A DNA stretch of 64,000 nucleotides from a phage: the sequence record NC_101838.1, one strand, 5' to 3'. This document shows positions 1 to 62,752 of the stretch, piece by piece. Both the position numbers and the translations under genes were made by a program. The notes under the pieces are model-generated. The model did no database searches, was not told where the DNA came from, and saw nothing but the letters and a program-made list of their open reading frames with translations. Position 1 is the first letter of the stretch. Every line of letters starts with the position of its first letter.

Positions 1-6
1 CTTAAG

Positions 7-252
7 ATGACTGAAGTAGTTGCTCGCGCAGGACAGAAAGTACGTTGTGTTGAAGTAGGTTTTGGTGGCAAAGGGTGTCAAAACTTGACTCAAGGTAAGG
101 AATACGCTGTTATTTCTGGTGGTGGCGACGAAAGTATTGTGTTCGAGGGCCACATCCTGGATGCTGAAAACTTTGAAATCTTTGACGACGATGGGGATCC
201 AATCACCTGCCTGCTGGACGGGAATTGGGGAACTTTCGAAGTGATTGGCTAA
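7..252 (+). CDS. hypothetical protein (81 aa)
   Basis: Six-frame ORF, first of a co-directional plus-strand array; no recognisable motif. Confidence 0.45.
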   Translation: MTEVVARAGQKVRCVEVGFGGKGCQNLTQGKEYAVISGGGDESIVFEGHILDAENFEIFDDDGDPITCLLDGNWGTFEVIG

Positions 253-335
253 CAAATACCTATTGTAATTTGCAGAAGGGGATGCTAAAATAGTGTCTCC
301 TTCTATGTTGTTCAAATAAAATCGGAGATTCCATA

Positions 336-701
336 ATGGAACAAATGAACGATCAAGCGTCGGTTGCGATGAACGAGCAAGAACAACCTCAAGAATTTTT
401 CTTAGGGTTAAGTAAAGATCAAGTGTCTCTTCTACTAGTGCTTTCTTCTTTCATGGGAAGACTTCAGGAGCTCACACAACAACCAGAGGCTGAACAATTA
501 TTTCAAGCTCTGCGTGAAGAAGAAAAATATCGTCGTTTGGACTATGCCTTAGGTTGGGTAGCTCAACAACGAGATATGCTGATGGCCCTCTCTGGGACCA
601 CAAGTTTTGCAATGGGGCTGTTGGCTCAAGTTCAGGACAAATTAATTCAAGCAGGGTTTGCACACACGGCAAACACTAACGAAGAACAAGGAGACAAATA
701 A
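336..701 (+). CDS. hypothetical protein (121 aa), Gln/Glu-rich
   Basis: ORF whose stop overlaps the next start (TAATG), suggesting translational coupling. Confidence 0.5.
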   Translation: MEQMNDQASVAMNEQEQPQEFFLGLSKDQVSLLLVLSSFMGRLQELTQQPEAEQLFQALREEEKYRRLDYALGWVAQQRDMLMALSGTTSFAMGLLAQVQDKLIQAGFAHTANTNEEQGDK

Positions 702-1927
702 TGAGCGTTATTCAACAATTCGCTAACCCGATGAATCCGCGTGAAACTGTTTTACTGGCTCACGGCATGATTAAACGTGTCAGCATCAAGCCTATCAAAG
801 GTGCTGATCCTACAACAGGTATTAAAACCACTGTGTGGCAAGGTAAGAAAATTGAATCCAGCCACACCATCTCTTTACTGATTTCTGAACTGGATTCCTC
901 TGATAACCTGCTTCAAGGTGGTGAAGAAGTTTGGATCAGCATGGGTGATAAGCTGCTTAAACCTGGTCATCAAGACTCTGTCTCTGTTAAAATTGATGAC
1001 AAGTGGGAAACCGTAACGCCGGGATGGATCGTAAATATCCCTTTGAAGGCAAACGAGCATAACGGTAAGACCTATTACAAAGGCTCACTGGCTAAGATGG
1101 TCAAGCTGGGTGCAGGAGAGGCTCCAGCAGCGACTCAGCAGCAAAAACAGCAACAAGGTGCACAATCACAAGGCCAGAAGCAGAAACCTCAGCAGAATGC
1201 CAATCAGGACGTTTTACGCATCTATGGCGATGTGACTCAGATTGTTGGCAACGTGGTTACTGTTAATGACCACAAGATTGGCGAAGGTGCTATGGTTGTA
1301 ACTGATGAGCAGCTTAAAGACCTGGTGGTAGGTGGTCGTGTTGCAGCCATTGTTGACAAAGACACCGGAAACATTATCAGTGGTTTCAAAGCCTATCCCC
1401 CTAAGGCAGAGAACGGCACTCAAGGCTCCGGTGGCAAGCGTAAATCCTCTTACGACCCTATCGGTGTGGAAACGGGGCATAGCATCAATGCGTTGCAGAT
1501 CATCCTGGATCGCGGGTTTAAGGTAGACGACCCACTGGGCGTGGCTAAAACACTGCACGTAGTCACCATTGAGCTTAAGAAAGAGTATGCTCAAGCCACC
1601 AACCGAACTGAAGATGAAGTAGGTGCCAGTGTCGGTAATGCGGTGTTGAACGCTTGTCGCCGTATTGACAAGAAAACGAAAGTTGATGATTTTGCAGCGG
1701 CAATTACTGCAGAAGCAAAAGATGTCTTGACTAATCTGGCTGAACCGTTGTACGATTGGATCAAGAACGGTGCTGGGTCAACTGACTATCAAGAACCCCA
1801 GGCTGCCAAACAGGAAGCAGCTCCACAGCAAAACACTGTAGACGCTCCTCCTGTAAATGATGAGGAAGATGACCCAATGGATCAGAATCCAGCACAGTAC
1901 ACCTTTGATGATGACATCCCTTTTTAA
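701..1927 (+). CDS. putative ssDNA-binding / SSB-interactome protein with canonical SSB C-terminal tail (408 aa)
   Basis: C-terminus ...PMDQNPAQYTFDDDIPF matches the E. coli SSB acidic tip (DDDIPF); Gln-rich linker (QQQKQQQGAQSQGQKQKPQQ) between two domains; N-terminal region not recognisably the canonical SSB OB-fold. Confidence 0.6.
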   Translation: MSVIQQFANPMNPRETVLLAHGMIKRVSIKPIKGADPTTGIKTTVWQGKKIESSHTISLLISELDSSDNLLQGGEEVWISMGDKLLKPGHQDSVSVKIDDKWETVTPGWIVNIPLKANEHNGKTYYKGSLAKMVKLGAGEAPAATQQQKQQQGAQSQGQKQKPQQNANQDVLRIYGDVTQIVGNVVTVNDHKIGEGAMVVTDEQLKDLVVGGRVAAIVDKDTGNIISGFKAYPPKAENGTQGSGGKRKSSYDPIGVETGHSINALQIILDRGFKVDDPLGVAKTLHVVTIELKKEYAQATNRTEDEVGASVGNAVLNACRRIDKKTKVDDFAAAITAEAKDVLTNLAEPLYDWIKNGAGSTDYQEPQAAKQEAAPQQNTVDAPPVNDEEDDPMDQNPAQYTFDDDIPF

Positions 1928-1942
1928 CATCTAGTTAACATA

Positions 1943-1970
1943 GCCCTGCCCGAAAGGGTGGGGCATTTTT
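1943..1970 (+). terminator. putative intrinsic terminator
   Basis: Imperfect GC hairpin (gccctgcccgaaagggtggggc) followed by cattttt just after the stop at 1927. Confidence 0.4.
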
Positions 1971-1989
1971 GTATAAGGAGATCTGAAAA

Positions 1990-2406
1990 ATGACATTAGA
2001 AGATATCATTGTTAAGCCTGAGAACTATGACCAATACAACCTGTCAACTCAATCTGTAGACCTTGGATGCGCCACGGTCAGTGCGTGGCTGGTTAACGGA
2101 AAAGAGCTGGATAAATGCTTAGAAGCTCACATGTCTATTAACAAGTTTCTGGATGAAAATACTCACTGGCTTGAGGGTGCAGGCGTATATGCTTCATGGT
2201 TGGATAGTATGGGATTCGACTACCAATCTGAAGAGGGGTGGTGGAGCTATTTAGCTATCTGTCCAGAGACGCTACAATGCTTCATGAAATATTCTGAAGA
2301 TTTGGAGTACCGGGCGGTGGTTGATAGTGCTATTGCCCGTTATAGCCGTAAACCTTTTTCCCACGACATTAAAACTGTGGAAGAATTTGTTGAAGTTTTC
2401 TGTTGA
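1990..2406 (+). CDS. hypothetical protein (138 aa)
   Basis: ORF preceded by aaggag SD-like motif; no recognisable domain. Confidence 0.5.
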   Translation: MTLEDIIVKPENYDQYNLSTQSVDLGCATVSAWLVNGKELDKCLEAHMSINKFLDENTHWLEGAGVYASWLDSMGFDYQSEEGWWSYLAICPETLQCFMKYSEDLEYRAVVDSAIARYSRKPFSHDIKTVEEFVEVFC

Positions 2407-2502
2407 CACAGATTGAAAGGTGTGCAATTATAACTTCATAGAACGGGAGGACGTGATGAACGAAGAAAACTGGGATGTATAACTAACAGGAGGCCACTGC
2501 CC

Positions 2503-2700
2503 ATGATTTATCGAATCCGTGTAAGAGAAGATGCACCAGGCTGTTACTTTGACTGGCGTGGGTGGTGGTTTATCCACCCAATGGATGGACTCACAGATAG
2601 AATGCTGGATGCTGCCCTTTACACAGATACCGACATAGAATATAATCTCTATCTGAAGGACGGTATAGATAACGGCCTGTTTGAAGCAATTCCTGTGTAA
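2503..2700 (+). CDS. hypothetical protein (65 aa)
   Basis: Short ORF preceded by aggagg SD-like motif. Confidence 0.4.
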   Translation: MIYRIRVREDAPGCYFDWRGWWFIHPMDGLTDRMLDAALYTDTDIEYNLYLKDGIDNGLFEAIPV

Positions 2701-2768
2701 GAGACTGTGATAGCTATGTTTTATGATCTTCCTGTAGCGCCACCACCTGTTGAACCAGGAGAACTAAG

Positions 2769-3194
2769 ATGATCTATGAAATGCCAAAACTGATTCGTGA
2801 CGATGCCCAAAACGCTCACACCATTATTATGGGCAAACGCATGGATATTATTTGTCATAAAGATTTCTGGGAAGGAAGTTACTTCACAGAGTATTTTGGT
2901 AAACTGGACAATGGTCTGCTGATCCAGTTCTACACCGATGCGGAAAACAACATTCCCTGGGAGTTCGAAACTGAAGATGTCCATAAACTTTTCACCTTCC
3001 TCGGTATTAAGGTTAAGGCCAAGTTTGAAGAAGGTGAGTGCGACGATTGTGGATTTTATGAGGTAACAGATTTCTACCTTCCTAGCGGTAAGAACCTTTA
3101 CTATGAAAGCCACTTCGGTAACTCCAATATGCCACAGTGCTGGACTGAGTTTTTTGAAATTGCGGAAGAGGAGCTGGCTTACCGTGATTATTGA
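2769..3194 (+). CDS. hypothetical protein (141 aa)
   Basis: ORF preceded by caggag; stop overlaps the probable GTG start of the next gene. Confidence 0.5.
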   Translation: MIYEMPKLIRDDAQNAHTIIMGKRMDIICHKDFWEGSYFTEYFGKLDNGLLIQFYTDAENNIPWEFETEDVHKLFTFLGIKVKAKFEEGECDDCGFYEVTDFYLPSGKNLYYESHFGNSNMPQCWTEFFEIAEEELAYRDY

Positions 3195-3642
3195 TACTGT
3201 AGAGGGAGATTTAATCTCCCTTTTTAAGAGCGGTGCTGGTCACCTGATCCACGGTTGTAACTGCTTCCACACAATGGGCAAGGGTATAGCAAAACAGATT
3301 GCCCGTGAGTTTCCTCAAGCACTGTCAGCCGACAAAGAGACTAGATACGGTTGCCTAAGTAAACTGGGTGCGTTCTCCCGATGGGAGCACTTATCTCCGG
3401 TAGGTATTGTCTACGGAATCAATCTATATACCCAGTTCTACCCAGGACCTAATGCTGAGTATTTCTCAATCCTGAAAGGCTTTGAGCTAGTCAATGAAGT
3501 ATTCAGCGGATCGACTTTACCATTCTACATCCCTAAGATCGGGTGCGGCATAGGCGGTTTGAAGTGGGAACACGTAGAGGACGTTATTAACCTTGCCACT
3601 TTCGACATAGATATTGTCGTGGTGGAGTACAAAAAGTGTTGA
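3184..3642 (+). CDS. macrodomain protein, TARG1/OARD1-like (O-acyl-ADP-ribose deacylase / ADP-ribosyl hydrolase family)
   Basis: Motifs GAGHLIHGCNCFHTMGKGIAKQI and IPKIGCGIGGLKWEHV resemble the TARG1/C6orf130 macrodomain signature as recalled (AHCISEDCRMGAGIA ... MPRIGCGLDRLQWENV). Probable GTG start at 3184 with gaagaggag upstream; the track ORF starts at an upstream ATG (3103) inside the previous gene. Confidence 0.6.
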   Translation: MIIDTVEGDLISLFKSGAGHLIHGCNCFHTMGKGIAKQIAREFPQALSADKETRYGCLSKLGAFSRWEHLSPVGIVYGINLYTQFYPGPNAEYFSILKGFELVNEVFSGSTLPFYIPKIGCGIGGLKWEHVEDVINLATFDIDIVVVEYKKC

Positions 3643-3667
3643 CGACCATCTTCTGAGGTGATATAGT
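3639..3667 (+). promoter_or_regulatory. sigma70-like promoter (TTGACG-17-TATAGT)
   Basis: -35/-10 hexamers with 17-bp spacer downstream of the macrodomain gene. Confidence 0.4.
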
Positions 3668-3893
3668 TTCCACGACAACTAAGAGAGGAGAGCACTGTGG
3701 AGACTAAAATCTTAATTCTTGCTGTGGTAGATACAACCGAAGGAGCTATATTCGAATCTGCAGGAGGGTATTTCTACCTACCATACGGAAAAAGAACTTC
3801 CGAGCCAGGTAAAGATTCAATCCTCAAAGTGTTCCCGTGTGCTTTCTGGCTGGAGATTTTGGTATAAGATTGCAGAGGATTTGGGAGAGAATT

Positions 3894-4088
3894 ATGAGAA
3901 ACAAGAAAGAACTTTACTCCGGTGAGTGGATCAACGATCAACAGGTGGGAGAGGTAACCTGCTTCCGATGTTTTACCAGGTACAATCTTAAAACTGCACC
4001 AAAAAGTGTTCCAAAGACTGACGGTTACTACATAAAAGAACCTCATTGCCCAAAATGTAAATGCCGATTGTACTGGAGCAATCTGTAA
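3894..4088 (+). CDS. small zinc-ribbon protein (about 64 aa)
   Basis: CxxC ... CPKCKC cysteine pairs; internal ATG of track ORF 3837..4088 chosen as start. Confidence 0.4.
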   Translation: MRNKKELYSGEWINDQQVGEVTCFRCFTRYNLKTAPKSVPKTDGYYIKEPHCPKCKCRLYWSNL

Positions 4089-4092
4089 GAGG

Positions 4093-4120
4093 TTGACATC
4101 TGAAAACTGCAGTGTATAAT
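4093..4120 (+). promoter_or_regulatory. sigma70-like promoter (TTGACA-16-TATAAT)
   Basis: Consensus hexamers upstream of the ORF at 4152. Confidence 0.55.
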
Positions 4121-4151
4121 ATACGCATAAACTAACAGAGGGTGATGTATT

Positions 4152-4343
4152 ATGGTAATTTTTAACCGGGATGGTATCATAGTTAGACAGCACCCGTTCC
4201 TTGAATACTATCAAATTGAGCAATGGTGCTACGGGGATTGCAGTCACTCCTATGGGCAAAGTTGGGGATATCGTACAGTTTTTGAATCCACAGACCTTGA
4301 CAAAGTAAAACAGAAAGTTTTAGAACTTCTTAACAACAAGTGA
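4152..4343 (+). CDS. hypothetical protein (63 aa)
   Basis: ORF downstream of a consensus promoter. Confidence 0.45.
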   Translation: MVIFNRDGIIVRQHPFLEYYQIEQWCYGDCSHSYGQSWGYRTVFESTDLDKVKQKVLELLNNK

Positions 4344-4353
4344 GTATCGTGCC

Positions 4354-4686
4354 ATGGTAACATTGGAAAGACGTAAAGCTATTGCCGCCACACTGGCAGA
4401 CATCTTTTGGGATTGTAATTTAAAATCTACCCGAAATTGTGGTGCATCTGTAGATGTATTATTCCCACGGCCTACTATTGTTGCAATGGGCAACCTGCTC
4501 GATGTGGTATATGGAGCATGGGACAAGGAAGGTGGATTCTATATCTGGCAACCTGACTACGGGACTTGGAAAGAGGTTAGTGGTTCTTCGGACTTCACTC
4601 CTGCAGTGGCTAAAATGGATGGCTGGAAAATCTATGTCGGTAACGACATGGAACTGAAAGGCGAAATTGTTTACTGGTTACCTTAA
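4354..4686 (+). CDS. hypothetical protein (110 aa)
   Basis: ORF in co-directional array. Confidence 0.5.
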   Translation: MVTLERRKAIAATLADIFWDCNLKSTRNCGASVDVLFPRPTIVAMGNLLDVVYGAWDKEGGFYIWQPDYGTWKEVSGSSDFTPAVAKMDGWKIYVGNDMELKGEIVYWLP

Positions 4687-4707
4687 GAAAGTCCAGGAGA
4701 TAAAGTT

Positions 4708-4953
4708 ATGAACAAAGGGTGGACATTTGTAGACGGCGTTAAAAACATGCCTCTAGGAAAGTATATTGTAGCCATGGCAGATGAGAATGGCAAGGTTGAT
4801 TTCGGAGTTTGCGAGGTTGTTCTTGCAGGATCTGGTGACTATGCTCACAAAACTGGGATAATTAACGGTCATTTCTACTTTGATTACAACCCTGTTGTGG
4901 CGTATATGGCTATGCCAGAGTTCGAGCTCCCAAAGGAAGGTGCAGATGTTTAA
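4708..4953 (+). CDS. hypothetical protein (81 aa)
   Basis: ORF preceded by ccaggag SD-like motif. Confidence 0.5.
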   Translation: MNKGWTFVDGVKNMPLGKYIVAMADENGKVDFGVCEVVLAGSGDYAHKTGIINGHFYFDYNPVVAYMAMPEFELPKEGADV

Positions 4954-5143
4954 GCTTAAATCTGCATGGAACATCGCTGTGGGGGACGAGATCCGTATCC
5001 CAGGTGGAAAGACCATTATGAAAATATCTCGTATCGAGTACGAAGGTGATCGTGTATTTCATATCTTTGCAGAAGATGGTCGAGAAATTTATATACAGGC
5101 AGGCTCTCACATCTATATTCGTAAGAAAGGGGAGGACAAATGA
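4946..5143 (+). CDS. hypothetical protein (65 aa)
   Basis: Internal ATG of track ORF 4880..5143, overlapping the upstream stop; aaggaagg SD-like motif. Confidence 0.45.
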   Translation: MFKLKSAWNIAVGDEIRIPGGKTIMKISRIEYEGDRVFHIFAEDGREIYIQAGSHIYIRKKGEDK

Positions 5144-5469
5144 CAGAGATCATCATTTCAACTGCAGGGTATGTATTCCTGACAATCATTGCGCTGGCTA
5201 TTCTGGTGGCGGTGTATGGATTTGTTATCCTTCCTATCCTTGAGACATTTAGTTTGTGTCGGTGTTGGAGAAAAGCTTACGGTCCACAACCATGGAAGGA
5301 CTGGCCCCACCTGGTGCGCTTAGCGTTCTCTTATGCTTACGATCACTCCAGTAGTGCATGCATAACCGGATACCACGCCCACAACTGGAGCTGGGAAGGG
5401 TTGAGGAAATGGAATGTTACAAAGACCATACCTCTGCGCATGTACAAACCTAAAAACAAAGACAACTGA
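5140..5469 (+). CDS. hypothetical membrane protein (109 aa)
   Basis: N-terminal hydrophobic helix (TAGYVFLTIIALAILVAVYGFVILPIL); aaaggggagg SD-like motif; start overlaps upstream stop. Confidence 0.5.
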   Translation: MTEIIISTAGYVFLTIIALAILVAVYGFVILPILETFSLCRCWRKAYGPQPWKDWPHLVRLAFSYAYDHSSSACITGYHAHNWSWEGLRKWNVTKTIPLRMYKPKNKDN

Positions 5470-5499
5470 TACTTGAAAATTCCTGGCATATCAAGTATA

Positions 5500-5960
5500 A
5501 GGGGGATTTCTAAAATGGATTTCCTCCTTTTGATATTTCACCGGGCTGGATATTTTAAAATTCTTAGAAAATCAGAAAATGGATCGAAAACTAAAATGGA
5601 TTTTTCAGAGTAGGCGCGACAAGCTGAATAACTCATCCTATCGTTTGCACCATATTCCAGGCCACCATTATAGATTTCCCACACATGCTAACCTCCCTCT
5701 ACTAGAACTTCCTCCACTTACCCTTGACCTTCTATGGTAACAATCTAACCGCTATCTTGAAGTTGCGGTGCAGCTTTCCAGGTACTCGATCTACTTTTCA
5801 TTTCAGGGCTTGGATTTTCTGAAAATTTTTCTCGATAAATTTCTCAGTACTCGATCTGTTTTTCGTTTTCTGAATCGGATTTTCTGGAAATCGTTCCGGC
5901 TCTCAACCTGAAATTTTTGGGGACGAAATCGATTTTTCGTTTTCAGAAATGGATTTTTAA
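5500..5960. repeat. iteron-like degenerate direct repeats (core GGATTTT) in ORF-free region
   Basis: At least 8 copies of (A)TGGATTTT(C)-like motifs and two copies of CAGTACTCGATCT about 65 bp apart. Confidence 0.6.
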
Positions 5961-6066
5961 AATTTCTATATGGGAATATTTTAGTGGATACTATTTTATA
6001 GTAAATTGTTACGGAGGGTAATTAGCGTGCTAATTAAATTTATTAAATGCGAGGAGTTCTCATTTA

Positions 6067-6285
6067 GAATCTTGAATGATAATCATTCTCGTTTGCAGAA
6101 TAACGGGCAGGCCCGGTGATTGTCTCCCGGCCCCTGTTGCCCCGGCTTGTTATTATAGTATCACACAGGACAAAGAAAGCAAGGATTTTTTGCATAAATT
6201 TTTAAATGATAATGATAACCGTTCTCATTTTATGCAGCGCTCATCCCTGGTGGTTGTCTCCCCCGTCACCGGTGCCTGCCGTCCT
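6067..6285. repeat. two copies of an approximately 75-bp direct repeat
   Basis: aatgataat..tctc.ttt..gcag...ggtgattgtctccc seen at about 6067-6140 and again at about 6208-6285. Confidence 0.5.
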
Positions 6286-6482
6286 TTCGATAGGTATATT
6301 GTGCCACCTGTCGGGGCCGCTGTCAACACTTTTCAAAAAATTTTTCTAACCTGATGCGCTAACCGCTGCAACCTGGCGGGGCCAGCCTGGCAGGACCTAA
6401 CTGACCAGGTGGGAGAGGGTGAAATCTTGCAAACCTGGTAGGCCCATGCTGTAGGGTAAACAATTGAAGAGGAGGTACAAAA

Positions 6483-6620
6483 ATGAAAGGTAATGCTACT
6501 CACCTGGGAAATGTAGTGATTAATGATACAGAAGCGCGGGAACATAAAGAAGAGTACGAAAAAATGGTGGTTAACCTGGCGGGGGGGCGGCAGGTGGATT
6601 CTATCATAAAAATAATTTAA
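6483..6620 (+). CDS. small hypothetical protein (45 aa)
   Basis: Short ORF with strong SD (gaagaggagg) 7 nt upstream of ATG; below the track length cutoff. Confidence 0.3.
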   Translation: MKGNATHLGNVVINDTEAREHKEEYEKMVVNLAGGRQVDSIIKII

Positions 6621-6628
6621 AATAATCG

Positions 6629-6656
6629 TTGACAACAAGGTTAATCATGGTATTAT
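6629..6656 (+). promoter_or_regulatory. sigma70-like promoter (TTGACA-16-TATTAT)
   Basis: Consensus-like hexamers upstream of the ORF at 6707. Confidence 0.5.
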
Positions 6657-6706
6657 TACCCTACAAGGTGAACAACACCGCACTAACCAGTAAAGAGGAT
6701 AAATTT

Positions 6707-6904
6707 ATGAACGCATACGGGATCAAAGTACGTCGCAACACTCGCCAGGTGGTCACCGATCAAATGGTTTGCCAGGTGGACGTAACCATCAACAACGGGC
6801 AAGGCCTTTATAAATTCCGTCGCGGTCAGAGCTATACCCGGCAACAGCTTAATCGTTGCGCCCTGACAAAAGGACAGATCAACCACTGGTTTAATAAAAA
6901 ATAA
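6707..6904 (+). CDS. hypothetical protein (65 aa)
   Basis: Internal ATG with aaagaggataaa SD-like leader, downstream of promoter. Confidence 0.45.
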   Translation: MNAYGIKVRRNTRQVVTDQMVCQVDVTINNGQGLYKFRRGQSYTRQQLNRCALTKGQINHWFNKK

Positions 6905-6968
6905 GTATTGACATATAGTCCGACACCAAATACACTAAAAGCACAAAAGACACTAAGAGGATAAAATC

Positions 6969-7367
6969 ATGAAAACCACTACCTTTAATTTTGATAATGC
7001 GGACTTTTCTTTTTCTGATGTCAAGAACTGCCGCCGTGATCGTGGATTTTACAAGGCTTATAATCTGGTGGGCCTGGACGATGACAATAATTTGCACGAA
7101 GTAGCTGAGATCCGGTATTATGCCGCCGTCAGCGGGAACACTCACTACTGCGTGTTTTGGATTCACGACAACAAGAACAATAAGTACGGTTATACTGGCG
7201 GCAAGGCGAGCGGTCACGGTTACGATAAAGCTAACGCAGCACTTGAGAGCGCATTAAATGCTATGGGGATCACTGCCGACGGCTGGATCTACGAAGAAGA
7301 GTTTTTGTCGGCACTTGCTGACCACCTGGGCTATAAAAAACACATTGTAACATGCGCCCACGAATAA
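6969..7367 (+). CDS. hypothetical protein (132 aa)
   Basis: ORF with ctaagaggataaaatc leader. Confidence 0.55.
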   Translation: MKTTTFNFDNADFSFSDVKNCRRDRGFYKAYNLVGLDDDNNLHEVAEIRYYAAVSGNTHYCVFWIHDNKNNKYGYTGGKASGHGYDKANAALESALNAMGITADGWIYEEEFLSALADHLGYKKHIVTCAHE

Positions 7368-7449
7368 AAATCATTGACACGCTGCAAAATTTAAGTAAAC
7401 TAGACACAAAAGGCGGGAATGTTTCCCGCCAGCACAAAGGAAAAAGATC

Positions 7450-7845
7450 ATGAATAAGAACGTACGCCGCATCATGAACGAACTGGCAAACGATGAAAAA
7501 ATTATTGATATGCATTTGGTCAACATTTGCCGCCGTTGTGTAACATATAACAACCGCGCCGCAAAAGCGCGTGAGATGAACGCAAAAGGCACCTTAAAGC
7601 CCTTTCAGGTGGTTGTAAAATCTATAACTAGCGCAGCAGGCCAGGCGCAGGACCACAACAACGAGAGCGCTAATATTGATCCGTCTTACGTAATGAAACG
7701 GATCCGGACTTGCAAGAATAAAGAGCAGGTATATAACGTCATAGATTGGCTGGACTCCCTGGGCGATGTGGTTTACAATAGGTTTTCTGCAGCTATCGAG
7801 ATCCAGCTTGACAGATTGGACGGGAAAGTACTAAAAACTTATTGA
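7450..7845 (+). CDS. hypothetical protein (131 aa)
   Basis: ORF preceded by a leader hairpin (ggcgggaatgtttcccgcc) and aaaggaaaaag SD-like motif. Confidence 0.55.
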   Translation: MNKNVRRIMNELANDEKIIDMHLVNICRRCVTYNNRAAKAREMNAKGTLKPFQVVVKSITSAAGQAQDHNNESANIDPSYVMKRIRTCKNKEQVYNVIDWLDSLGDVVYNRFSAAIEIQLDRLDGKVLKTY

Positions 7846-7846
7846 G

Positions 7847-7892
7847 TTTATTTTTAGATGGCCTTGACACCAGGGCCATCAATAAAGTAAAC
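7847..7892 (+). promoter_or_regulatory. repeated intergenic cassette: promoter -35 embedded in a stem-loop (copy 1)
   Basis: gtttatttttagatggccTTGACAccagggccatcaataaagtaaac; inverted repeat gatggcc/ggccatc encloses TTGACA. Confidence 0.5.
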
Positions 7893-7925
7893 TAACCACA
7901 GTTGAGCGGAAAAGGAGGCTTAAAG

Positions 7926-8045
7926 ATGAGCACTACACGCCAGCACACAAAGGTAACCATCATCGTTTGCATCATTGGGTACATCCTGGCGCAAATGTTG
8001 ATGGGTAGCGCCAACGGTGTCGCAAAATTTTTCTTAAACTTTTAA
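7926..8045 (+). CDS. small hydrophobic peptide (39 aa)
   Basis: Strong SD (aaaaggagg) before ATG; hydrophobic core IIVCIIGYILAQMLMG; below track cutoff. Confidence 0.35.
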   Translation: MSTTRQHTKVTIIVCIIGYILAQMLMGSANGVAKFFLNF

Positions 8046-35240: not shown

Positions 35241-36173
35241 TCATTTACCACAAATCTTCTTGTATACCTCTTCTACCGTGTCAAACACTTCAGGCCTGTA
35301 GTAGAAAAACTCAGTGCTACCGTCAAATTTTACAGGAAAGTTTATTTTATACTTGCTCAAGGCCTTATGCACAGATTTTTCTAAATCTACCATGTTTTGA
35401 GTTGATCCGCTCCATGTTTTTACTACGTGAAGAGTGTGGACACCTGCGCCAGATTTACGAGCACTGTTAAGCACCTCATTTTTCCTCCTGTGCATTTTAA
35501 CGCATACACCGATTTTCATAAGTGTTGGCACTTCTAAGTCATCAACCATAATGTAGAGTTTACCGTACTCATGAGATAAGAATCCATTTTGTGCGCATTT
35601 ACAGCAGCCACGACCACTTTTTAGGTTATTAGGTTTAGCAGACCACTTATACCCACAAATTTTGCACCTACATTGCACTTTTGTGTTATCATTGGCAATT
35701 TTCTCTAATATTTCTATGTCTGGGTTGGCTTTGTGGATAATTGCAGCGTGCTCCTTATGGGTTAACGCTTGACTTTGCCCACGTCTTAAGTCATAGCACT
35801 CTGGGCAGCCGTTTCTTTGGTATAAGTGGTTTTCAGGGTATTGTTCAAACACACCGTGTTCAGGGCAAACAATTTTTACAGGCGTTCTCATGTTCGCATA
35901 TTTGACTAATGAGTAATCGTACTTGTCCCCATGAACAGCCATAGCCTCTTTTATGAACTCTTCAGTGTTCTTTTTCGCTGACCCACCACACCTTGGACAA
36001 CCATGATTCTTGAAAGCATGTGCCACAGGGGTTTGCCAGAACTCACCGTGCTCAGGACAAATTATACACACAGGTGTCTTGTTGTTTTTATACTCCACTT
36101 TGAAGTAATCATATTTGTCACCATGTATAGTCTGAGCTTTTTCTATAAACTCTTCGGTTGTTAGTCTTCTCAT
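35241..36173 (-). CDS. T5orf172 (GIY-YIG-like) domain protein with three N-terminal zinc-ribbon repeats; homing-endonuclease-like
   Basis: Three repeats of FIEKA..IHGDKYDY..V.Y.N..TPV.I.CPEHG.F.Q.P..H...GCP.C; C-terminal KIGVCVKMHRRKNEV...DGSTEFF matches the T5orf172 domain pattern. Confidence 0.6.
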   Translation of the reverse strand: MRRLTTEEFIEKAQTIHGDKYDYFKVEYKNNKTPVCIICPEHGEFWQTPVAHAFKNHGCPRCGGSAKKNTEEFIKEAMAVHGDKYDYSLVKYANMRTPVKIVCPEHGVFEQYPENHLYQRNGCPECYDLRRGQSQALTHKEHAAIIHKANPDIEILEKIANDNTKVQCRCKICGYKWSAKPNNLKSGRGCCKCAQNGFLSHEYGKLYIMVDDLEVPTLMKIGVCVKMHRRKNEVLNSARKSGAGVHTLHVVKTWSGSTQNMVDLEKSVHKALSKYKINFPVKFDGSTEFFYYRPEVFDTVEEVYKKICGK

Positions 36174-36288: not shown

Positions 36289-37512
36289 TTATTTACTCAA
36301 CGGACAACAGTCTACATTCCCAACATGTTTAACACGTTCGATAACCTCTGCTTGTTTACCTGTGTTATACGGCCTACTGTTCGGGCTGGAGAGATAGCCA
36401 GACACTCTTCGGATCACTGAGATATATTGTTCATCGTGGCATCCGCACGCAGGGCAGCAGAACCCTTTAGCTGTTGCACTGAACTCACCAGAGAAACCAC
36501 ACTTGAGACATTTATCCACAGGTTGGTTAATACCAAAATACATAATGTGTTTATACCCGAAGTCAACAAGAGCCTCTAAAGCATCAAGGTTGTTTTTCAG
36601 GTTAGGTGTCTCTACGTATCCGATGTTGCCACCGGAGGAGATCATAGCAAAACCTTCCTCATACTCCCACTTATCAAAAGGAGAGCTATTGATCCATACT
36701 GGCTGATGGAAACTGTTGGTGAGATATTCATGCTCGTGCTTTAACACTTCTGGATATTCACGATCCAGACAGGTTGCAGCTTTATAGCATAGACTCTCAG
36801 AAGGAGTGCCGTACAAGCTAAATGCTAGTCTACTTTCCTTCTTGTATCGCTCACAAGCATCTCTCATGTGCTGAAGGATTCCAAGAGCTAAAGCCTTGTC
36901 ACCTTCTCTGCCCAAAATCTGACAGGTTTCATACACACCAATGTACCCAATGCTGATGGAAGCGTACCCGTCATAGAAGAGTTTATCAATACTTTCTTCA
37001 GGATCCAGGCGAGCAAGAGCGCCTTCACACCACATGATGGGGTTCTGCCCTGCCTTTGTTCCTTTTAGACGGTTAACCCTTACAAGGTGAGCCTCGTATG
37101 CAAGATCCAAGTATTCGTCAAGAACTGCAAAGAAATCAACACCTTCCGTCTTAGCTTTTGCCGCAATCATTGGCAGGTTAAGGCTAACAACGCCTAAGTT
37201 AAATCTGCCAAGGTATTTCTCCTCGCCTGTTTCCAAGTCATTGTATTTGCTAAGAAAACTCCGGCAACCCATGCTCGTTACTTTGCCATCTGTCGAGCCT
37301 GTCACTTTTCTATTTAGTGGTACAGATACGAAGTCAGGATAGATACGTTCTGCACAGCATTCCAGAGCTAATCGTTTCAAATCATAGTTAGGATCTCCAG
37401 GGTTCATGTTGACACCCTCTTCTAGGAAGAACAGCACTTTAGGGAACACAGGTGTGATCCGTTCTTCACCAAGACCCATTTTGTGGACTTTCAAGTAATT
37501 TTTGGTAATCAT
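36289..37512 (-). CDS. nrdD: anaerobic ribonucleotide reductase NrdD, C-terminal part (candidate exon 2)
   Basis: Glycyl-radical motif RRVSGYLSS near the C-terminus; zinc ribbon CLKCGF...CCPACGC; GRFNLGVVSLNLPMIA resembles a conserved NrdD segment; no convincing SD before the first ATG. Confidence 0.8.
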   Translation of the reverse strand: MITKNYLKVHKMGLGEERITPVFPKVLFFLEEGVNMNPGDPNYDLKRLALECCAERIYPDFVSVPLNRKVTGSTDGKVTSMGCRSFLSKYNDLETGEEKYLGRFNLGVVSLNLPMIAAKAKTEGVDFFAVLDEYLDLAYEAHLVRVNRLKGTKAGQNPIMWCEGALARLDPEESIDKLFYDGYASISIGYIGVYETCQILGREGDKALALGILQHMRDACERYKKESRLAFSLYGTPSESLCYKAATCLDREYPEVLKHEHEYLTNSFHQPVWINSSPFDKWEYEEGFAMISSGGNIGYVETPNLKNNLDALEALVDFGYKHIMYFGINQPVDKCLKCGFSGEFSATAKGFCCPACGCHDEQYISVIRRVSGYLSSPNSRPYNTGKQAEVIERVKHVGNVDCCPLSK

Positions 37513-37605
37513 TCTACCAAAGACCGAGGTATCCAGTCCTAAACTTAATGTGATGAATGGAGTCTGCTGTCTCCTCCCTGTGTTTCCACAGGGCCAGACT
37601 ATCTC

Positions 37606-38139
37606 TTACTCTACTTCAATAAGATAATAACCCTTTATTGTGAGATGCTTACCTTCGGCATTTCCTTCGATAGCCCTATGAACGTTACCTACGTTCAAAT
37701 TTAAGGCTTTTGCACAGGCATAGAGTGAAGGATATTCACCCACCAAGGTTTTCCCTTTGTATGCCTGCACTTTCCTATAGCACTTACCTGGACAAAGTCC
37801 TGTTCGGAAAGCATGTCTCTTATTATCTTCCGGCAAAACCCACTCTAGGTTAGACGGATGATCATTCAATGTATTGCCATCTTTATGATTCACTTCCCAG
37901 TTTTCAGGGTCTTCTGGGACATCCGGCAAACAATACAAGGCAACAATCCTTGAGGTTTGGATTCGAATCTTTTTACCTTTGTGGTTGAAAGAGTACATAT
38001 AACGGCGTTTAACATGCTTGTTACCTTTTCCATAACCTCCCCACAATATTGGGTGTAGCATTCCACGTTTCCCGTATACGTTTCCAACCTCATCAATCAC
38101 ATAGTTTGATTCTTCACCATTAAGAATGATCTTTTTCAT
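37606..38139 (-). CDS. HNH homing endonuclease
   Basis: HNH motif EVNHKDGNTLNDHPSNLEWVLPEDNKRHA; own SD (ggagagg); sits between the two nrdD parts. Confidence 0.8.
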   Translation of the reverse strand: MKKIILNGEESNYVIDEVGNVYGKRGMLHPILWGGYGKGNKHVKRRYMYSFNHKGKKIRIQTSRIVALYCLPDVPEDPENWEVNHKDGNTLNDHPSNLEWVLPEDNKRHAFRTGLCPGKCYRKVQAYKGKTLVGEYPSLYACAKALNLNVGNVHRAIEGNAEGKHLTIKGYYLIEVE

Positions 38140-38360
38140 AGAGCCTCTCCATTTCGAAGTTAGTATTTCAACTAACCCCTACACTACTTGGTTCAGAAAT
38201 GTTTGTCAAGCATCTCTGCCTTTCGTTAGTCGTTACAACCGTTCCAACTCCTGTAAGAACTAGTCACGGGATTGGCATAGCTTTCGCCTTAGCGTTCCCC
38301 GTTAGCCGGATTTACCGACCCCTCTTATGAGGTTAGGAGAGTTTTACAACGGCCAGTTTG

Positions 38361-39224
38361 TTAACCGTTGACAGAAGTTAACGTATTGATTTGATAGAGC
38401 AAAGTCTGCATGCTGTCAAATACGTCTTTATCTGTCATTTGCATTGCAACAGTCTCAGCATCTGGCAACCAATGTTCCTGGCAAAATTTAAGGTTCTTCT
38501 CATAGGTCGCTTCAGCATACTGTGCCAGATAATGATCAATATGGCTCATAGTCTGACCCCCATATTGAGCACTAGCTACTGCACTAGAGATTTGGCTAAG
38601 GATTGTTGTTGCAACCCCTATTGACTTAGGCTTACTGACATGGGCGTTACCAATGTTGAATCCGTTTTCCAACATATCTGGATAATTTACCAAACAACAG
38701 TTTGTTAACGGACTGATCAAGTAGTCAAGATCATGCACATGGATGAAGCCTCTATTGTGCTCTTCTGAGACACGGTCTGGCAGGATCTGTGTTGATGCAA
38801 GGTGTTTGCTAAGAATGCCTGCAAGCAGGTCACGATGAGTGTGTACATGATTGGTAGGCTTATTTGCGTTTTCTTTTGTAAATTCATCACAAGTGCGATC
38901 CAAGAAGCCACTAATATCTGCAAGCAGTTTTCCACCTGCCTCTCTGTTATTATCTCTTGTCTGCCTATACTGGATGTATTCTCTGGCTGCACATTTTAAA
39001 CCCATATCCATAAGAGCGTCTTCAACAAGGATATGGATATTTTTTACAGAGATCGTGCACTGGTCGGTTGGTAGATTGTTAGCAACAACTTCATTAACCG
39101 CGCAGGCGATCCGGTAAGCTTCTTCTTCAGTATGTCCAGACTCAAGTAAGGCGGACTCTGCCGCCTTGATCACCTTAATTCCGTTATAGACCTCTTCTCT
39201 ACCGTCCCGTTTTACAACTTTCAC
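38361..39224 (-). CDS. nrdD: anaerobic ribonucleotide reductase NrdD, N-terminal part (candidate exon 1)
   Basis: ATP-cone-like N-terminus (MKVVKRDGREEVYNGIKV), GFIHVHDLDY motif typical of class III RNR; ORF stops after ...LTSVNG, 848 nt upstream of the C-terminal part. Confidence 0.8.
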   Translation of the reverse strand: MKVVKRDGREEVYNGIKVIKAAESALLESGHTEEEAYRIACAVNEVVANNLPTDQCTISVKNIHILVEDALMDMGLKCAAREYIQYRQTRDNNREAGGKLLADISGFLDRTCDEFTKENANKPTNHVHTHRDLLAGILSKHLASTQILPDRVSEEHNRGFIHVHDLDYLISPLTNCCLVNYPDMLENGFNIGNAHVSKPKSIGVATTILSQISSAVASAQYGGQTMSHIDHYLAQYAEATYEKNLKFCQEHWLPDAETVAMQMTDKDVFDSMQTLLYQINTLTSVNG

Positions 39225-55336: not shown

Positions 55337-56050
55337 TTAAATATACTCTGTTACATCCTTGAAGCTCGAAGGCTTCATAATCTTACCTTTACTGTCAAGG
55401 AATATAATAACTTTATTACCGTTGTAGAACTCCTCTTTAGCAACGAAACCTTCGTAGCGACCACCAAAACGACGCTCAAGATCTTCAATCTCTAACTCTA
55501 TGAGCAATTCAGTAGACATATCTGCACTGGCACCGTGAGAATATCGTAGATGGTTGATCCGTGCAAACTTGCTGTCATTAGATTTGAGAACCTTCCGCAT
55601 CATCCCACACACATCGCCGCGAAGCTGGAACAGCAAAGCTGTTGACAACTCCGCTAAGCGGTAAGCTGACGCTCTTTGCTTGGATGTGTTTTTCGCAGCG
55701 ATCAGTGTATCATAGAACTCACCGATCTTGAACTTAAGACCTCGTGGATTATCAAACAGGTTTGACCACTTTTCGTGATTATCATTAACAAGATAAGCGG
55801 CATAACTTGTGACAACGTGAAGATCGCAGGCCTCTTTTAGCAGGTGATCTCCACCATCACCTTTCTCCAGCTCTTCCAAAACCTCATTGAACTCTTCCTC
55901 AATGAAGCTAAGCTGTAATTCGAATGGTGTGTATGATTTTTTCACTTTAGCTGCCACACGGTTCCAGTTTTCCACCCAGTTGGCAGACCAAAGGTAGTTT
56001 TCAGGCTGAGACAGTTTTTCCAGGTTGTCGATCAGTTTAGTATTCAGCAT
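55337..56050 (-). CDS. hypothetical protein with MazG-like NTP pyrophosphohydrolase-type motif (237 aa)
   Basis: EEEFNEVLEELEKGDGGDHLLKEACDL resembles the MazG EE..E...E...D...ExxD.L signature; C-terminal half unassigned. Confidence 0.4.
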   Translation of the reverse strand: MLNTKLIDNLEKLSQPENYLWSANWVENWNRVAAKVKKSYTPFELQLSFIEEEFNEVLEELEKGDGGDHLLKEACDLHVVTSYAAYLVNDNHEKWSNLFDNPRGLKFKIGEFYDTLIAAKNTSKQRASAYRLAELSTALLFQLRGDVCGMMRKVLKSNDSKFARINHLRYSHGASADMSTELLIELEIEDLERRFGGRYEGFVAKEEFYNGNKVIIFLDSKGKIMKPSSFKDVTEYI

Positions 56051-56063
56051 TAAAGGTCTCCTT

Positions 56064-56825
56064 TTAAAGTTCCATAAAGTTTTCTACAGTTTCAATAAAT
56101 GCTTTATCAGAGAAAGCGTCAACAGCACCGTTAAACCATACAGGGATCCCGCGATCCTCATATTGATAAAGGTCGCTACGTGAAATGCCACTTCCATCTG
56201 CACTCTGCGAGTCATACTTGTTTACAATCAGCAGTTTTGTGCCTTTACAAGTAGCAGGAAACAATTCCCAGTTAAAATTAATAACTGTGTTAGAACAACC
56301 TACTAGGATCACCATATCATTGCTTGTGAGAGATGTCAACAGGTCATACATGTCTGTATACTTAGGAGCAACCTCACCGAAGAACACTACATTGGGCTTA
56401 ACCCAGGTATACTTGCCTGTATCTACCTCCGTGTATCCGATATTTTTAATTACATCATTACCTTCAGCATCTTCGTAGGTGATTTCAGGCAAATACCCGT
56501 GGACATGTAAAATATCTTCATGTTTTACACCAGCACGCTCCAGCAAATCATCTACATTGGTGGTAAGGTTGATCACACGACCAGACCAGCGGGAATACCA
56601 CTCAGCGATCCGAAGATGTGCAAGGTTAGGATCAACACTGCCCAGAGCTACACGACGTGCATTGTAAAAGTCATGCACCTTATAGTAATTCTTGGCAAAG
56701 GTGTGGATGTTGCACACCTCATCGATGCTGAAATTCTCCCACATTGCAGTGCTACCAGATCGGAAAGTGGGAATACCAGATTCAGCGCTCAAACCAGCAC
56801 CGGAGATAATAATCAGTCGTCGCAT
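56064..56825 (-). CDS. Sir2-family (sirtuin-like) NAD-dependent enzyme lacking an obvious zinc ribbon
   Basis: ISGAGLSAESGIPTFRS (Rossmann/NAD motif), TTNVDDL, HVHG (catalytic His), VVFFGE, ILVGCSNTV; no CxxC...CxxC pairs seen. Confidence 0.8.
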   Translation of the reverse strand: MRRLIIISGAGLSAESGIPTFRSGSTAMWENFSIDEVCNIHTFAKNYYKVHDFYNARRVALGSVDPNLAHLRIAEWYSRWSGRVINLTTNVDDLLERAGVKHEDILHVHGYLPEITYEDAEGNDVIKNIGYTEVDTGKYTWVKPNVVFFGEVAPKYTDMYDLLTSLTSNDMVILVGCSNTVINFNWELFPATCKGTKLLIVNKYDSQSADGSGISRSDLYQYEDRGIPVWFNGAVDAFSDKAFIETVENFMEL

Positions 56826-56833
56826 AAGTGTCC

Positions 56834-57184
56834 TCAGTAGATGTTTTGTTTAATCTCTATTCCAAACTTCTTGAATGAGTCAGCAGCAAGCATAAATTTA
56901 CGAGCTGCCGATGGATTAGAAGTATGCACGAAAATAATCACGTTGTCAATAAGTGGTGGCTTTCCGAATACAAGTTTCTCCTCTAGCGCAGAGAAGCAGT
57001 CGTACCCTTCAAGCACTTCACCTAGATCATTGTCAAAATACCACTCAGATACGCGTCTGTAGAGCTTTCTCTTATCATTAAGAAAATCCATAAACTCAGA
57101 AGAATTCTTTAGCCACAGAGCGTCTGGGAGTCCATAATCTGACGGATCTCTAAAATCATCAAGCCACACAATCCACTTCTTCAT
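56834..57184 (-). CDS. hypothetical protein (116 aa)
   Basis: ORF between the RNA ligase and Sir2 genes; overlapping stop/start on both sides. Confidence 0.5.
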   Translation of the reverse strand: MKKWIVWLDDFRDPSDYGLPDALWLKNSSEFMDFLNDKRKLYRRVSEWYFDNDLGEVLEGYDCFSALEEKLVFGKPPLIDNVIIFVHTSNPSAARKFMLAADSFKKFGIEIKQNIY

Positions 57185-58116
57185 TGCATATAGTCCTCGT
57201 TGTGGAAATAGTAGTCCAGTATCTCACGACGCTCCTGCTCTAATAAGCAATTCCACACATCTTCTGTATAGTTGCTACGAATAAATTTTACCATACCGTA
57301 AAACTCTTCGTCAACACGTTTAAAGATATCATCATCCCAAATCTTCCAAGCTTTACCCCTCATTACTGCCTTCCGTGCCAGATAGTATGGAGACTTGATC
57401 TTCAGCTGCAGATCATAAGGGTAGTAAGGCTTACGAATCATATACCCTTCACCTCTTGTTTCTGCAGCTAATTCTTTTGCATAGCTGAACGGAATTTCAC
57501 GCACAGTGTTAGGACGTTTTGCACCAAGGTATTTGGCAATCCCATCTAAAGCTGCTTCTGGTAGCATTATTCCAGAATCATTATATCTGCAACCTATCAA
57601 ATATGCGCCATGGTCTTCTTGAACAATATGCGGATCTGAAGGGTGACAAATTTCAAACATGAATGTCATGTTTTCATTGCCCATAACCTTCTTGATAAGA
57701 TCTAAATTACCACATTGCTCTTGGATGGTTTCCTTTGCAAGGTTACAATATGGAGAATCAAGAGACCCGGTTGTTGAGAACAATAGGTCACCTTTATGAG
57801 ATGATACCACACCAAGGAATCCGTTCTTTTTCTCTACCGCAGTCACAAGCTTATTGTCAGGCAGGTTGGTGGAGTTTTCTCCCAAGTTAAACACTTTTGT
57901 GAAGGGCCATGCCACAACATTTCCTTCATTACCTACAACAATGCCTCGGCACTCCAGTAAACGAGGGGACAAATGCCATAAATTGTTGTAAAATACTTTT
58001 CTAGCATATTTATAGATCTTTAACCCGAGATCTGGGTAATACCTACTGGTTGCAAGACCTTTGTCAACTAGGTCGTCTGCATTAAAATACTTCATTATAT
58101 GTTCCTCATTTGTCAT
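57181..58116 (-). CDS. rnlA: RNA ligase, T4 Rnl1 (RnlA)-like
   Basis: LSPRLLECRGIVV and KVFNLGENSTNLP match recalled T4 Rnl1 segments (LPDALECRGIMF, KFFNLNENP); motif I VEKKNG (KxDG/NG) near residue 97, motif IV EGYMIRK, motif V KIKSP. Confidence 0.7.
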   Translation of the reverse strand: MTNEEHIMKYFNADDLVDKGLATSRYYPDLGLKIYKYARKVFYNNLWHLSPRLLECRGIVVGNEGNVVAWPFTKVFNLGENSTNLPDNKLVTAVEKKNGFLGVVSSHKGDLLFSTTGSLDSPYCNLAKETIQEQCGNLDLIKKVMGNENMTFMFEICHPSDPHIVQEDHGAYLIGCRYNDSGIMLPEAALDGIAKYLGAKRPNTVREIPFSYAKELAAETRGEGYMIRKPYYPYDLQLKIKSPYYLARKAVMRGKAWKIWDDDIFKRVDEEFYGMVKFIRSNYTEDVWNCLLEQERREILDYYFHNEDYMQ

Positions 58117-58159
58117 TTTGTCAGTCTATCCTGCCACACAAATAACTTAGTGTCAACAC

Positions 58160-58188
58160 TTGAAATTAACAAAACAGTTAGGTATACT
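58160..58188 (+). promoter_or_regulatory. sigma70-like promoter (TTGAAA-17-TATACT) in divergent intergenic region
   Basis: Hexamers upstream of the kinase gene; the minus-strand block starts 45 nt to the left. Confidence 0.5.
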
Positions 58189-58216
58189 ACCGTTGAAATT
58201 AAAACGGAGGGTCGCT

Positions 58217-58627
58217 ATGTCTAAAATGCTATATATCGTGCGTGGTCTACCAGGGTCTGGCAAATCAACACTGGCAAATGCGCTATCTTTAGAGGGTCTG
58301 TATCCACATTTTGAGAACGACATGTTCTGGTATGACGATGACGGCAATTACAACTGGGATGCAAGTAAAGTAACACTCGCAGCAAAATGGTGCAAAGATA
58401 ACGTAGAAGATATGATGCGTATGGGATACGACCGTATCGTGGTAAGTAATACGTTTACAAAAGAAAAACATGTGCAGGAATATGTTGACATGGCAATCAC
58501 TCATGGGTATAGTTATACCGTGATCGTGGTTGAAAACCGCCACGGTAATAAAAGCATTCATGATGTTCCAGACAAGGTTGTGGATCGTATGGAACGCCAG
58601 CTTAAAAACTGCATTAAACTTAAATGA
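58217..58627 (+). CDS. P-loop kinase, polynucleotide 5'-kinase-like
   Basis: Walker A LYIVRGLPGSGKSTLA resembles the T4 Pnk kinase N-terminus (GCPGSGKSTWA); ggagg SD; 136 aa. Confidence 0.6.
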   Translation: MSKMLYIVRGLPGSGKSTLANALSLEGLYPHFENDMFWYDDDGNYNWDASKVTLAAKWCKDNVEDMMRMGYDRIVVSNTFTKEKHVQEYVDMAITHGYSYTVIVVENRHGNKSIHDVPDKVVDRMERQLKNCIKLK

Positions 58628-58634
58628 GGAATGT

Positions 58635-62177: not shown

Positions 62178-62181
62178 AATT

Positions 62182-62670: not shown

Positions 62671-62675
62671 TTTTT

Positions 62676-62751: not shown

Positions 62752-62752
62752 A

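Follow-up and report, generated by a model that had tools for sequence, protein, structure and literature searches.

The window analysed here is a 64,000-nucleotide (nt) stretch of phage DNA (NC_101838.1) belonging to a Vequintavirus (rV5-like) that is 99.9% identical to Escherichia phage naswa in this region. Near its start lies a short gene (3184..3642) that an initial annotation, made from the letters alone, had assigned to the TARG1/DarG-type macrodomains, with two possible roles: reversal of DarT-like DNA ADP-ribosylation by the host, or processing of the product of the phage's own Sir2-like enzyme. Our analysis indicates that the gene most likely encodes a stand-alone ALC1-like macrodomain ADP-ribosyl hydrolase, the Vequintavirus member of the family that includes Tk.4 (AdfM) of phage T4. 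Coordinates of all features discussed are collected in Table 1.

The reading frame coincides exactly with the one originally described. A mechanically compiled list of open reading frames (ORFs) extends the gene to an ATG at 3103, but this start was rejected: it would add 27 residues without counterpart in the homologues and create a 92-nt overlap with the upstream ORF. We favour the GTG at 3184 because residue 1 of the resulting protein is where the homologues, T4 Tk.4 included, begin to align, because a Shine-Dalgarno-like GAGGAG precedes it, and because identical coordinates are annotated in phages naswa (naswa_120, 'hypothetical protein') and HdK5 (HdK5_00038, 'macro domain protein'). The upstream ORF runs 11 nt into the macrodomain gene, an overlap suggestive of translational coupling; the same overlapping pair is found in phage Bas54 (bas54_0091/0092).

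About 6 kb separate the DNA polymerase gene from the macrodomain gene downstream of it. Both belong to a long series of genes read in the same direction: rIIA, rIIB, helicase, methyltransferases, primase/helicase and polymerase come first, and dozens of small genes of unknown function, the macrodomain gene among them, come after. On the plus strand of positions 1..8000, sigma-70-like matches were roughly twice as frequent as in shuffled sequences (28 observed against 14.7 ± 3.7 expected), and one of them, at 4093-4120, is a perfect TTGACA-16-TATAAT. This density suggests that the accessory-gene array could consist of many short transcription units read by the host polymerase, and makes early transcription by that enzyme plausible.

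The ORF encodes a macrodomain protein with the alpha/beta/alpha macro fold, scoring above the curated cut-off of the Pfam Macro family (PF01661; 28 bits against 22). It matched PHROG 335, labelled 'phosphatase', with an E-value of 1.9e-59, and the macrodomain part of DarG models in PADLOC (E 2.7e-13) and NCBIfam (E 2.5e-12). The NCBIfam DarG equivalog gave only 46.7 bits against a cut-off of 250, covering model positions 3-141 of 338, as expected of a protein that does not have the second domain of DarG. A profile built from the family retrieved DarG, BT1257, SCO6735, TARG1 and Poa1p from the PDB sequences with E-values of 3e-17 to 3e-11. An AlphaFold2 model based on 71 homologues describes a single domain with high confidence (predicted local distance difference test score 96.5, predicted template modelling score 0.91), and Foldseek searches of the PDB with this model returned TARG1 first (6e-10), followed by the macrodomains of Poa1p and DarG. 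In both sequence and structure the protein is closer to the ALC1-like class (TARG1, DarG, Poa1p and SCO6735) than to the MacroD, viral nsP3 or PARG types. The macrodomain call was thus borne out by every one of these approaches, and both of the signature segments on which it had been based, HGCNCFHTMGKGIA and PKIGCGIGG, are present. As for the assignment to the TARG1/DarG type, the class membership held; catalytically the protein is not of the TARG1/OARD1 type.

This last point emerges from the active site. Neither of the TARG1 catalytic residues has its equivalent: Lys84 of TARG1 is replaced by Gln84 and Asp125 by Gly124. In MAFFT alignments the catalytic Lys80 of DarG and the corresponding Lys of PhiKZ gp104 likewise fall opposite Gln84. 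The family profile aligned the 'NlYTQ' segment to 'NMIGQ' of SCO6735 and BT1257 (ANMIGQ), and MAFFT agreed in pairing Gln84 with Gln85 of SCO6735. SCO6735 efficiently removes thymidine-linked ADP-ribose without the TARG1 or DarG catalytic residues; its Q85A variant is inactive, and a water-mediated mechanism has been proposed for it (PMC9411070). Asn26 of the window protein aligns with Asn23 of PhiKZ AdfM and Asn27 of SCO6735. In the reference alignment Gly24 stands opposite SCO6735 Val25, and Gly120 and Gly122 opposite Gly126 and Gly128; the SCO6735 numbering was taken from the PDB alignment, which reproduces Gln85.

Gln84 was present in 227 of 233 relatives collected from two database searches and invariant in the 71-sequence alignment, as were Gly24, Asn26, Gly34, Ala36, Asn80, Pro117 and Gly120. 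Such near-invariance across the family argues that the exchange of Lys for Gln is not a product of decay. The loop that follows (FYPGPNAEY) is short, free of lysine and five residues shorter than that of SCO6735, so that the invariant Gln together with the short loop sets the family apart from DarG as well as from SCO6735. The window protein is mildly acidic, with an isoelectric point (pI) of 5.9, the same as that of T4 Tk.4. The phage AdfM-type macrodomains (window, T4 Tk.4 and PhiKZ gp104) span pI 5.0-5.9, compared with 8.4-9.7 for DarG, SCO6735, BT1257 and TARG1, and two thirds of 175 family members have a pI below 7.

Among phages the gene is widespread. The surrounding region is covered at at least 90% identity by 116 Vequintavirus-type records, and the gene itself is conserved in 116 of 118 matching records. 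A tblastn search of a phage collection found macrodomain homologues in 2,781 records, including all classical T-even phages, where the T4 match was tk.4; the family as a whole counts 4,395 representatives at 50% identity and extends across many phage groups. Near-identical GenBank and RefSeq records already carry the label 'macro domain protein' or 'phosphatase'. The T4-like Enterobacteria phage GEC-3S (163 kb) encodes a macrodomain 69.5% identical to the window protein, whereas the T4 copy is 39% identical, which suggests that this accessory gene may have been exchanged horizontally between unrelated phage families. Domain fusions were considered as a functional clue and discarded, as a Pfam scan of ten longer relatives (203-350 residues) gave only the Macro domain. 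In the window a hidden Markov model (HMM) of the family detected this one macrodomain and no second, and the 25 Pfam families listed for its 100 ORFs (13 weaker families fall outside this list) included no ADP-ribosyltransferase, DarT, NADAR or Tpt1.

The function of the gene is best approached through its T4 homologue. According to a preprint by Humolli et al. (bioRxiv 10.1101/2025.11.20.689424), E. coli K-12 supports T4 without tk.4, which is classed as non-essential there. On a DarTG2 host, by contrast, tk.4 was the only gene to score significantly in a T4 transposon library, and its clean knockout left T4 sensitive to DarTG2; the authors named it adfM, for anti-DarT factor macrodomain. Thymidine-linked ADP-ribose made by DarT is removed by TARG1, DarG and SCO6735 alike (PMC9411070). 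Because T4 requires Tk.4/AdfM for DarTG2 resistance and enzymes of the same class possess the activity, reversal of DarT-type DNA ADP-ribosylation is the better supported of the two roles first proposed; for the present phage we infer it, and judge it on balance probable that the protein strips ADP-ribose from phage DNA and so counters host DarTG2.

Two further observations fit this role. In both DarTG papers (one being bioRxiv 10.1101/2025.11.20.689424), T5 serves as a DarTG2-sensitive phage. We found no macrodomain homologue in the T5 genome, either by tblastn with three queries or by searching all six frames with the family HMM, which recovered the window gene as a positive control with an E-value of 3e-63; absence of the macrodomain thus correlates with sensitivity. 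In the Bas54 counterpart, bas54_0092, every one of 31 sites accepted insertions, and the gene is classed as non-essential in E. coli K-12, a host without DarTG2, as would be expected of an accessory counter-defence gene. Nor was it depleted in one comparison, on an unspecified host (log2 fold change +0.42, q = 1).

A plausible course of events can be outlined. The gene would be expressed early or early-middle, probably by host RNA polymerase, from an accessory block of small non-essential genes downstream of the replication genes. Infection would free the host toxin DarT2, which would ADP-ribosylate single-stranded phage DNA on the thymidines of TNTC motifs and so block replication. The two Gly-rich loops and Asn26 of the macrodomain are predicted to bind the ADP-ribose, and hydrolysis of the ribose-thymine bond would restore replicable DNA. 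The protein would in effect be an 'orphan antitoxin', a DarG2-like eraser minus the DarT-binding domain of DarG2. Since Gln84 aligns with Gln85 and neither the DarG Lys nor the TARG1 Lys/Asp pair is present, catalysis most likely follows the SCO6735 route, in which Gln84 would position the distal ribose and a water molecule would perform the chemistry.

Several considerations weigh against this reading. The T4 evidence is purely genetic, stems from a preprint and concerns a protein of 39% identity. The protein does not have the catalytic Lys found in DarG and TARG1, and its short loop has neither the five extra residues of SCO6735 nor its Lys89 and Lys93, which have been tied to efficient activity on DNA (PMC9411070). 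SCO6735 and TARG1 also act on proteins (PMC9411070). Our literature search returned no report on resistance of Vequintavirinae to DarTG2; the sole link between this subfamily and DarTG that it found was the NADAR protein (AdfN) of Bas60-62, which acts on DarTG1. Finally, a pI of 5.9 differs from the basic macrodomains of DarG, SCO6735 and TARG1. We set net charge aside as an argument against a DNA substrate, as PhiKZ AdfM has a pI of 5.05 and is active on DNA.

The protein could instead be a broader or different eraser, acting on protein- or RNA-linked ADP-ribose placed by host defence ADP-ribosyltransferases or phage enzymes, with DarT2-modified DNA as one substrate or not a physiological one. 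Hydrolysis of protein-linked ADP-ribose by SCO6735, which has the same Gln site, and by TARG1 (PMC9411070) is in keeping with this, as are the acidic pI and the short, lysine-free loop, which give the protein a less DNA-adapted look than SCO6735, and the sheer size and spread of the family. We nonetheless regard it as rather unlikely, given that the only phenotype known for the subfamily is the DarTG2 sensitivity of T4 Δtk.4 (bioRxiv 10.1101/2025.11.20.689424), that no ADP-ribosyltransferase was among the Pfam families listed for the window, and that PhiKZ AdfM, likewise acidic, works on DNA (PMC13309987). The historical 'phosphatase' label corresponds to another function, that of a Poa1p-like ADP-ribose-1''-phosphate phosphatase clearing by-products of RNA repair or tRNA splicing. 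An H-x-C-N-C motif in common with Poa1p and the presence of RNA-repair genes in the phage speak weakly for it, but those genes are found on the opposite strand at a distance of 52-55 kb, the listed families contain no Tpt1/KptA 2'-phosphotransferase to make the substrate, the Poa1p-specific residues are only partly conserved (Phe152 and Ser85 correspond to Gly124 and Gln84), and the phenotype reported for T4 Tk.4 in the preprint concerns DarTG2 (bioRxiv 10.1101/2025.11.20.689424), all of which makes this function quite improbable. Replacement of the catalytic Lys by Gln might also be taken to indicate a protein that binds ADP-ribose without catalysis or inhibits DarT stoichiometrically, acting on DarT2 or on ADP-ribosylated targets by binding, and catalytically dead mutants of SCO6735, DarG and TARG1 do still inhibit DarT by interacting with it (PMC9411070). 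SCO6735, however, depends on this very Gln for its high hydrolytic activity (PMC9411070), and Gln84, Asn26 and the Gly loops are nearly invariant over thousands of relatives, which indicates that the active site is conserved in a single-domain protein of 152 residues that has no DarT-binding domain; we consider mere binding extremely improbable.

The second role first suggested, that of a partner to the phage sirtuin which deacylates its O-acyl-ADP-ribose or reverses sirtuin-made ADP-ribosylation, did not withstand comparison of the two genes' distributions. The product of 56064..56825 is indeed a sirtuin (Pfam SIR2, 6.9e-28; PHROG 2162, 1.5e-108), both genes occur in Vequintaviruses, and deacylation of O-acyl-ADP-ribose is within the capacity of TARG1-class enzymes (TARG1/OARD1). 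Yet T5, which has no macrodomain by tblastn and family HMM, encodes a Sir2 (T5.102, 6548-7366) that is 57% identical to that of the window. None of 60 evenly sampled macrodomain-bearing records had a genome of the 105-122 kb typical of T5-like phages, and many were T4-like; conversely, about half of 40 evenly sampled Sir2 records had genomes of 105-122 kb and none was T4-like in size or name. The gene tables of T4 and Bas37 contain no sirtuin. The window has them on opposite strands with 52 kb between them, and Sir2 belongs to an RNA ligase/cREC/pyrophosphohydrolase operon. Sir2 and the macrodomain are thus inherited independently, so that an obligate functional pairing is unlikely, and we hold the sirtuin-partner proposal to be very improbable. 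Countering of DarTG2 remains the role we prefer.

Some observations on the sirtuin stand apart from this question. Its relatives were found in 1,011 phage records, including many of T5-like genome size together with rV5-like, phAPEC8-like and jumbo phages. The genes around it, on both strands of 55337..59189, form an RNA-repair-like cluster, and the RNA-ligase operon setting suggests that the sirtuin takes part in RNA or NAD-linked end processing and not in protein deacetylation.

Elsewhere in the window, the anaerobic ribonucleotide reductase gene nrdD is split across 36289..39224 on the minus strand. The gene is intact in phage APECc02 and split differently in Bas54. An HNH endonuclease ORF lies between the two parts, and Rfam gave a sub-threshold group I intron match at 37576..37863 (27.7 bits against a gathering threshold of 50, E 7.7e-5); the interruption is probably a mobile intron with its homing endonuclease. 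Between nrdD and the activase gene nrdG, a 310-residue ORF looks, from its predicted domains, like a free-standing mobile gene of the homing-endonuclease type. In the tRNA cluster at 62103..62915, ARAGORN predicted a tRNA of 99 nt (62572..62670, plus strand) to which it assigned no identity and whose anticodon, 'atcc', has four bases. Rfam scored it weakly as a tRNA (35.5 bits) and the APECc02 annotation has none at this place; it could be intron-containing, degenerate or frameshift-suppressor-like.

Table 1. Positions of the macrodomain gene, its motifs and other features of the window.
Feature	Position	Strand	Description
Macrodomain gene	3184..3642	+	152 residues, GTG start, TGA stop; T4 tk.4/adfM homologue; positional counterpart of bas54_0092
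Motif 1, HGCNCFHTMGKGIA	3250..3291	+	Residues 23-36; invariant Asn26 and Gly-rich phosphate-binding loop
Motif NLYTQ	3421..3435	+	Residues 80-84; Gln84 at position of TARG1 Lys84, DarG Lys80 and SCO6735 Gln85
Motif 2, PKIGCGIGG	3532..3558	+	Residues 117-125, second substrate-binding loop; Gly124 at TARG1 Asp125 position
GAGGAG, Shine-Dalgarno-like	3168..3173	+	Within the 3' end of the upstream ORF, 10 nt ahead of the GTG; read from sequence
Upstream ORF	2769..3194	+	141 residues, PHROG 8157, unknown function
Sigma-70-like promoter match	2618..2646	+	TTTACA-17-TATAAT, 11/12; nearest strong match upstream of the 2769/3184 pair; consensus match only
Intrinsic-terminator-like hairpin	1943..1964	+	Closes the preceding transcription unit; terminator also annotated in HdK5
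310-residue ORF	35241..36173	-	Between nrdD and nrdG; DUF723, CapR, treble-clef zinc-finger and T5orf172 domains
nrdD C-terminal part	36289..37512	-	NRDD 180-562 and glycyl-radical domain
HNH endonuclease ORF	37606..38139	-	Between the nrdD parts
nrdD N-terminal part	38361..39224	-	ATP-cone and NRDD positions 1-154
PHROG-671 'nucleotide pyrophosphohydrolase'	55337..56050	-	Sir2 operon
Sir2	56064..56825	-	Pfam SIR2, PHROG 2162
cREC_REC cyclic-phosphate-processing receiver domain protein	56834..57184	-	Sir2 operon
RNA ligase	57181..58116	-	Sir2 operon
PNK-like AAA_33 kinase	58160..58627		Divergent from the Sir2 operon
Metallophosphoesterase	58530..59189		Divergent from the Sir2 operon

Already on record were the macrodomain annotation, the T4 homologue's phenotype from a preprint and the biochemistry of a more distant phage relative. 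To these our analysis adds the extension of the AdfM assignment to the Vequintavirinae, which would provide a second example of a T4-type AdfM, the invariant Gln with its short loop, and the evidence against coupling to Sir2. Vequintaviruses have a broad host range and serve in the phage therapy and phage typing of E. coli. If the proposed role is correct, they carry a ready-made counter to DarTG2, and this would help to predict their host range on DarTG2-positive strains. Thousands of such phage proteins are still labelled 'phosphatase' or 'hypothetical protein' in databases. Had the TARG1 catalytic residues been used as the yardstick, a probably functional enzyme would wrongly have been dismissed, although the domain call was correct.

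The proteins called AdfM split into a Lys type (PhiKZ, DarG-like) and a Gln type (T4 and rV5-like phages, with SCO6735-like chemistry), a division that matters for mechanism, inhibitor design and annotation, and that is not addressed in the available text of the two AdfM papers (bioRxiv 10.1101/2025.11.20.689424; PMC13309987). Tentatively, and with some doubt, we would go further and regard the Tk.4-type phage macrodomains as a third active-site type within the ALC1-like class, marked by an invariant N-x-Y-T-Q, a short lysine-free 'PGPN' loop and an acidic surface. Phages would then have recruited two different macrodomain lineages as 'AdfM', one DarG-like and of the Lys type (PhiKZ gp104), the other of the Gln type (Tk.4). 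The Gln type would operate by a lysine-independent, water-mediated mechanism, with a substrate range possibly reaching beyond DarT2-modified thymidine, for instance to ADP-ribose that defence systems attach to other bases, to RNA or to proteins.

Set against the characterized macrodomains, the window protein differs from DarG2 (M. tuberculosis 5M3I, T. aquaticus 5M31/5M3E) in having Y-T-Q where DarG2 has P-T-K with the catalytic Lys80, and in ending directly after the macrodomain, with no C-terminal DarT-binding domain and no darT next to the gene; nor is a DarT among the Pfam families listed for the window. TARG1/OARD1 (4J5R/4J5S), its best Foldseek match (E 6e-10, template modelling score 0.78-0.85), is of similar size and the same class and has the GCG-x-x-x-L-x-W motif in common, but is only 23-26% identical, with Lys84 and Asp125 exchanged for Gln and Gly and a Ser where motif 1 of the window protein has Asn. 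Yeast Poa1p (6LFQ) is 23% identical and contains an insertion of about 25 residues before motif 2. Of the Poa1p residues probed by deposited mutants, His23 is kept in the window protein, Ser30 aligns with Thr30 and Phe152 with Gly124; Ser85 of Poa1p stands opposite Gln84. SCO6735 of Streptomyces coelicolor and BT1257 of Bacteroides thetaiotaomicron share the Gln at the catalytic position, but at 24-26% identity they are cellular and strongly basic proteins as opposed to a viral, acidic one, and their 'mobile loop' constitutes an insertion of 5-6 residues relative to the phage family, with Lys89 and Lys93 of this subclass having no counterpart in the window protein.

The two phage relatives are the most instructive. 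PhiKZ gp104, independently named AdfM by Morgan et al. (Cell Rep 2026, PMC13309987), was shown to strip DarT2-made ADP-ribose from a TNTC oligonucleotide in vitro and to rescue cells from DarT2 toxicity, with N23A lowering its activity; this demonstrated activity on DNA serves as the model for the mechanism proposed here. Like the window protein it is a free-standing macrodomain from a phage, of the same class and of PHROG 335, and its catalytic-site Asn23 corresponds to Asn26. Its identity to the window protein is nonetheless only 20-25% (BLASTP E 1e-4), against 39% to M. tuberculosis DarG; it keeps the DarG-type Lys (PTKD) opposite Gln84, and is imported into a phage nucleus, whereas Vequintaviruses are not nucleus-forming. 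On these identities the two 'AdfM' proteins belong to different subgroups, and we place the window protein with T4 Tk.4. The phages that carry Tk.4 and the window protein belong to different groups (Straboviridae and Vequintavirinae), the neighbouring genes are not the same, 61% of positions differ and the DarTG2 phenotype has been described for T4 only. Otherwise the likeness is close. The window protein and Tk.4 are single-domain proteins of 152 and 155 residues, 39% identical over 150 of 152 residues (E 2e-41), both of PHROG 335 and both of pI 5.9. They have the motifs HGCNCFHTMG-G-A, NLYTQF-PGPN and P-IG-GIG in common, Gln84 included. Both represent stand-alone macrodomains of lytic phages with no DarT-binding domain, and tk.4 and bas54_0092, the Bas54 counterpart of the window gene, are both dispensable in E. 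coli K-12.

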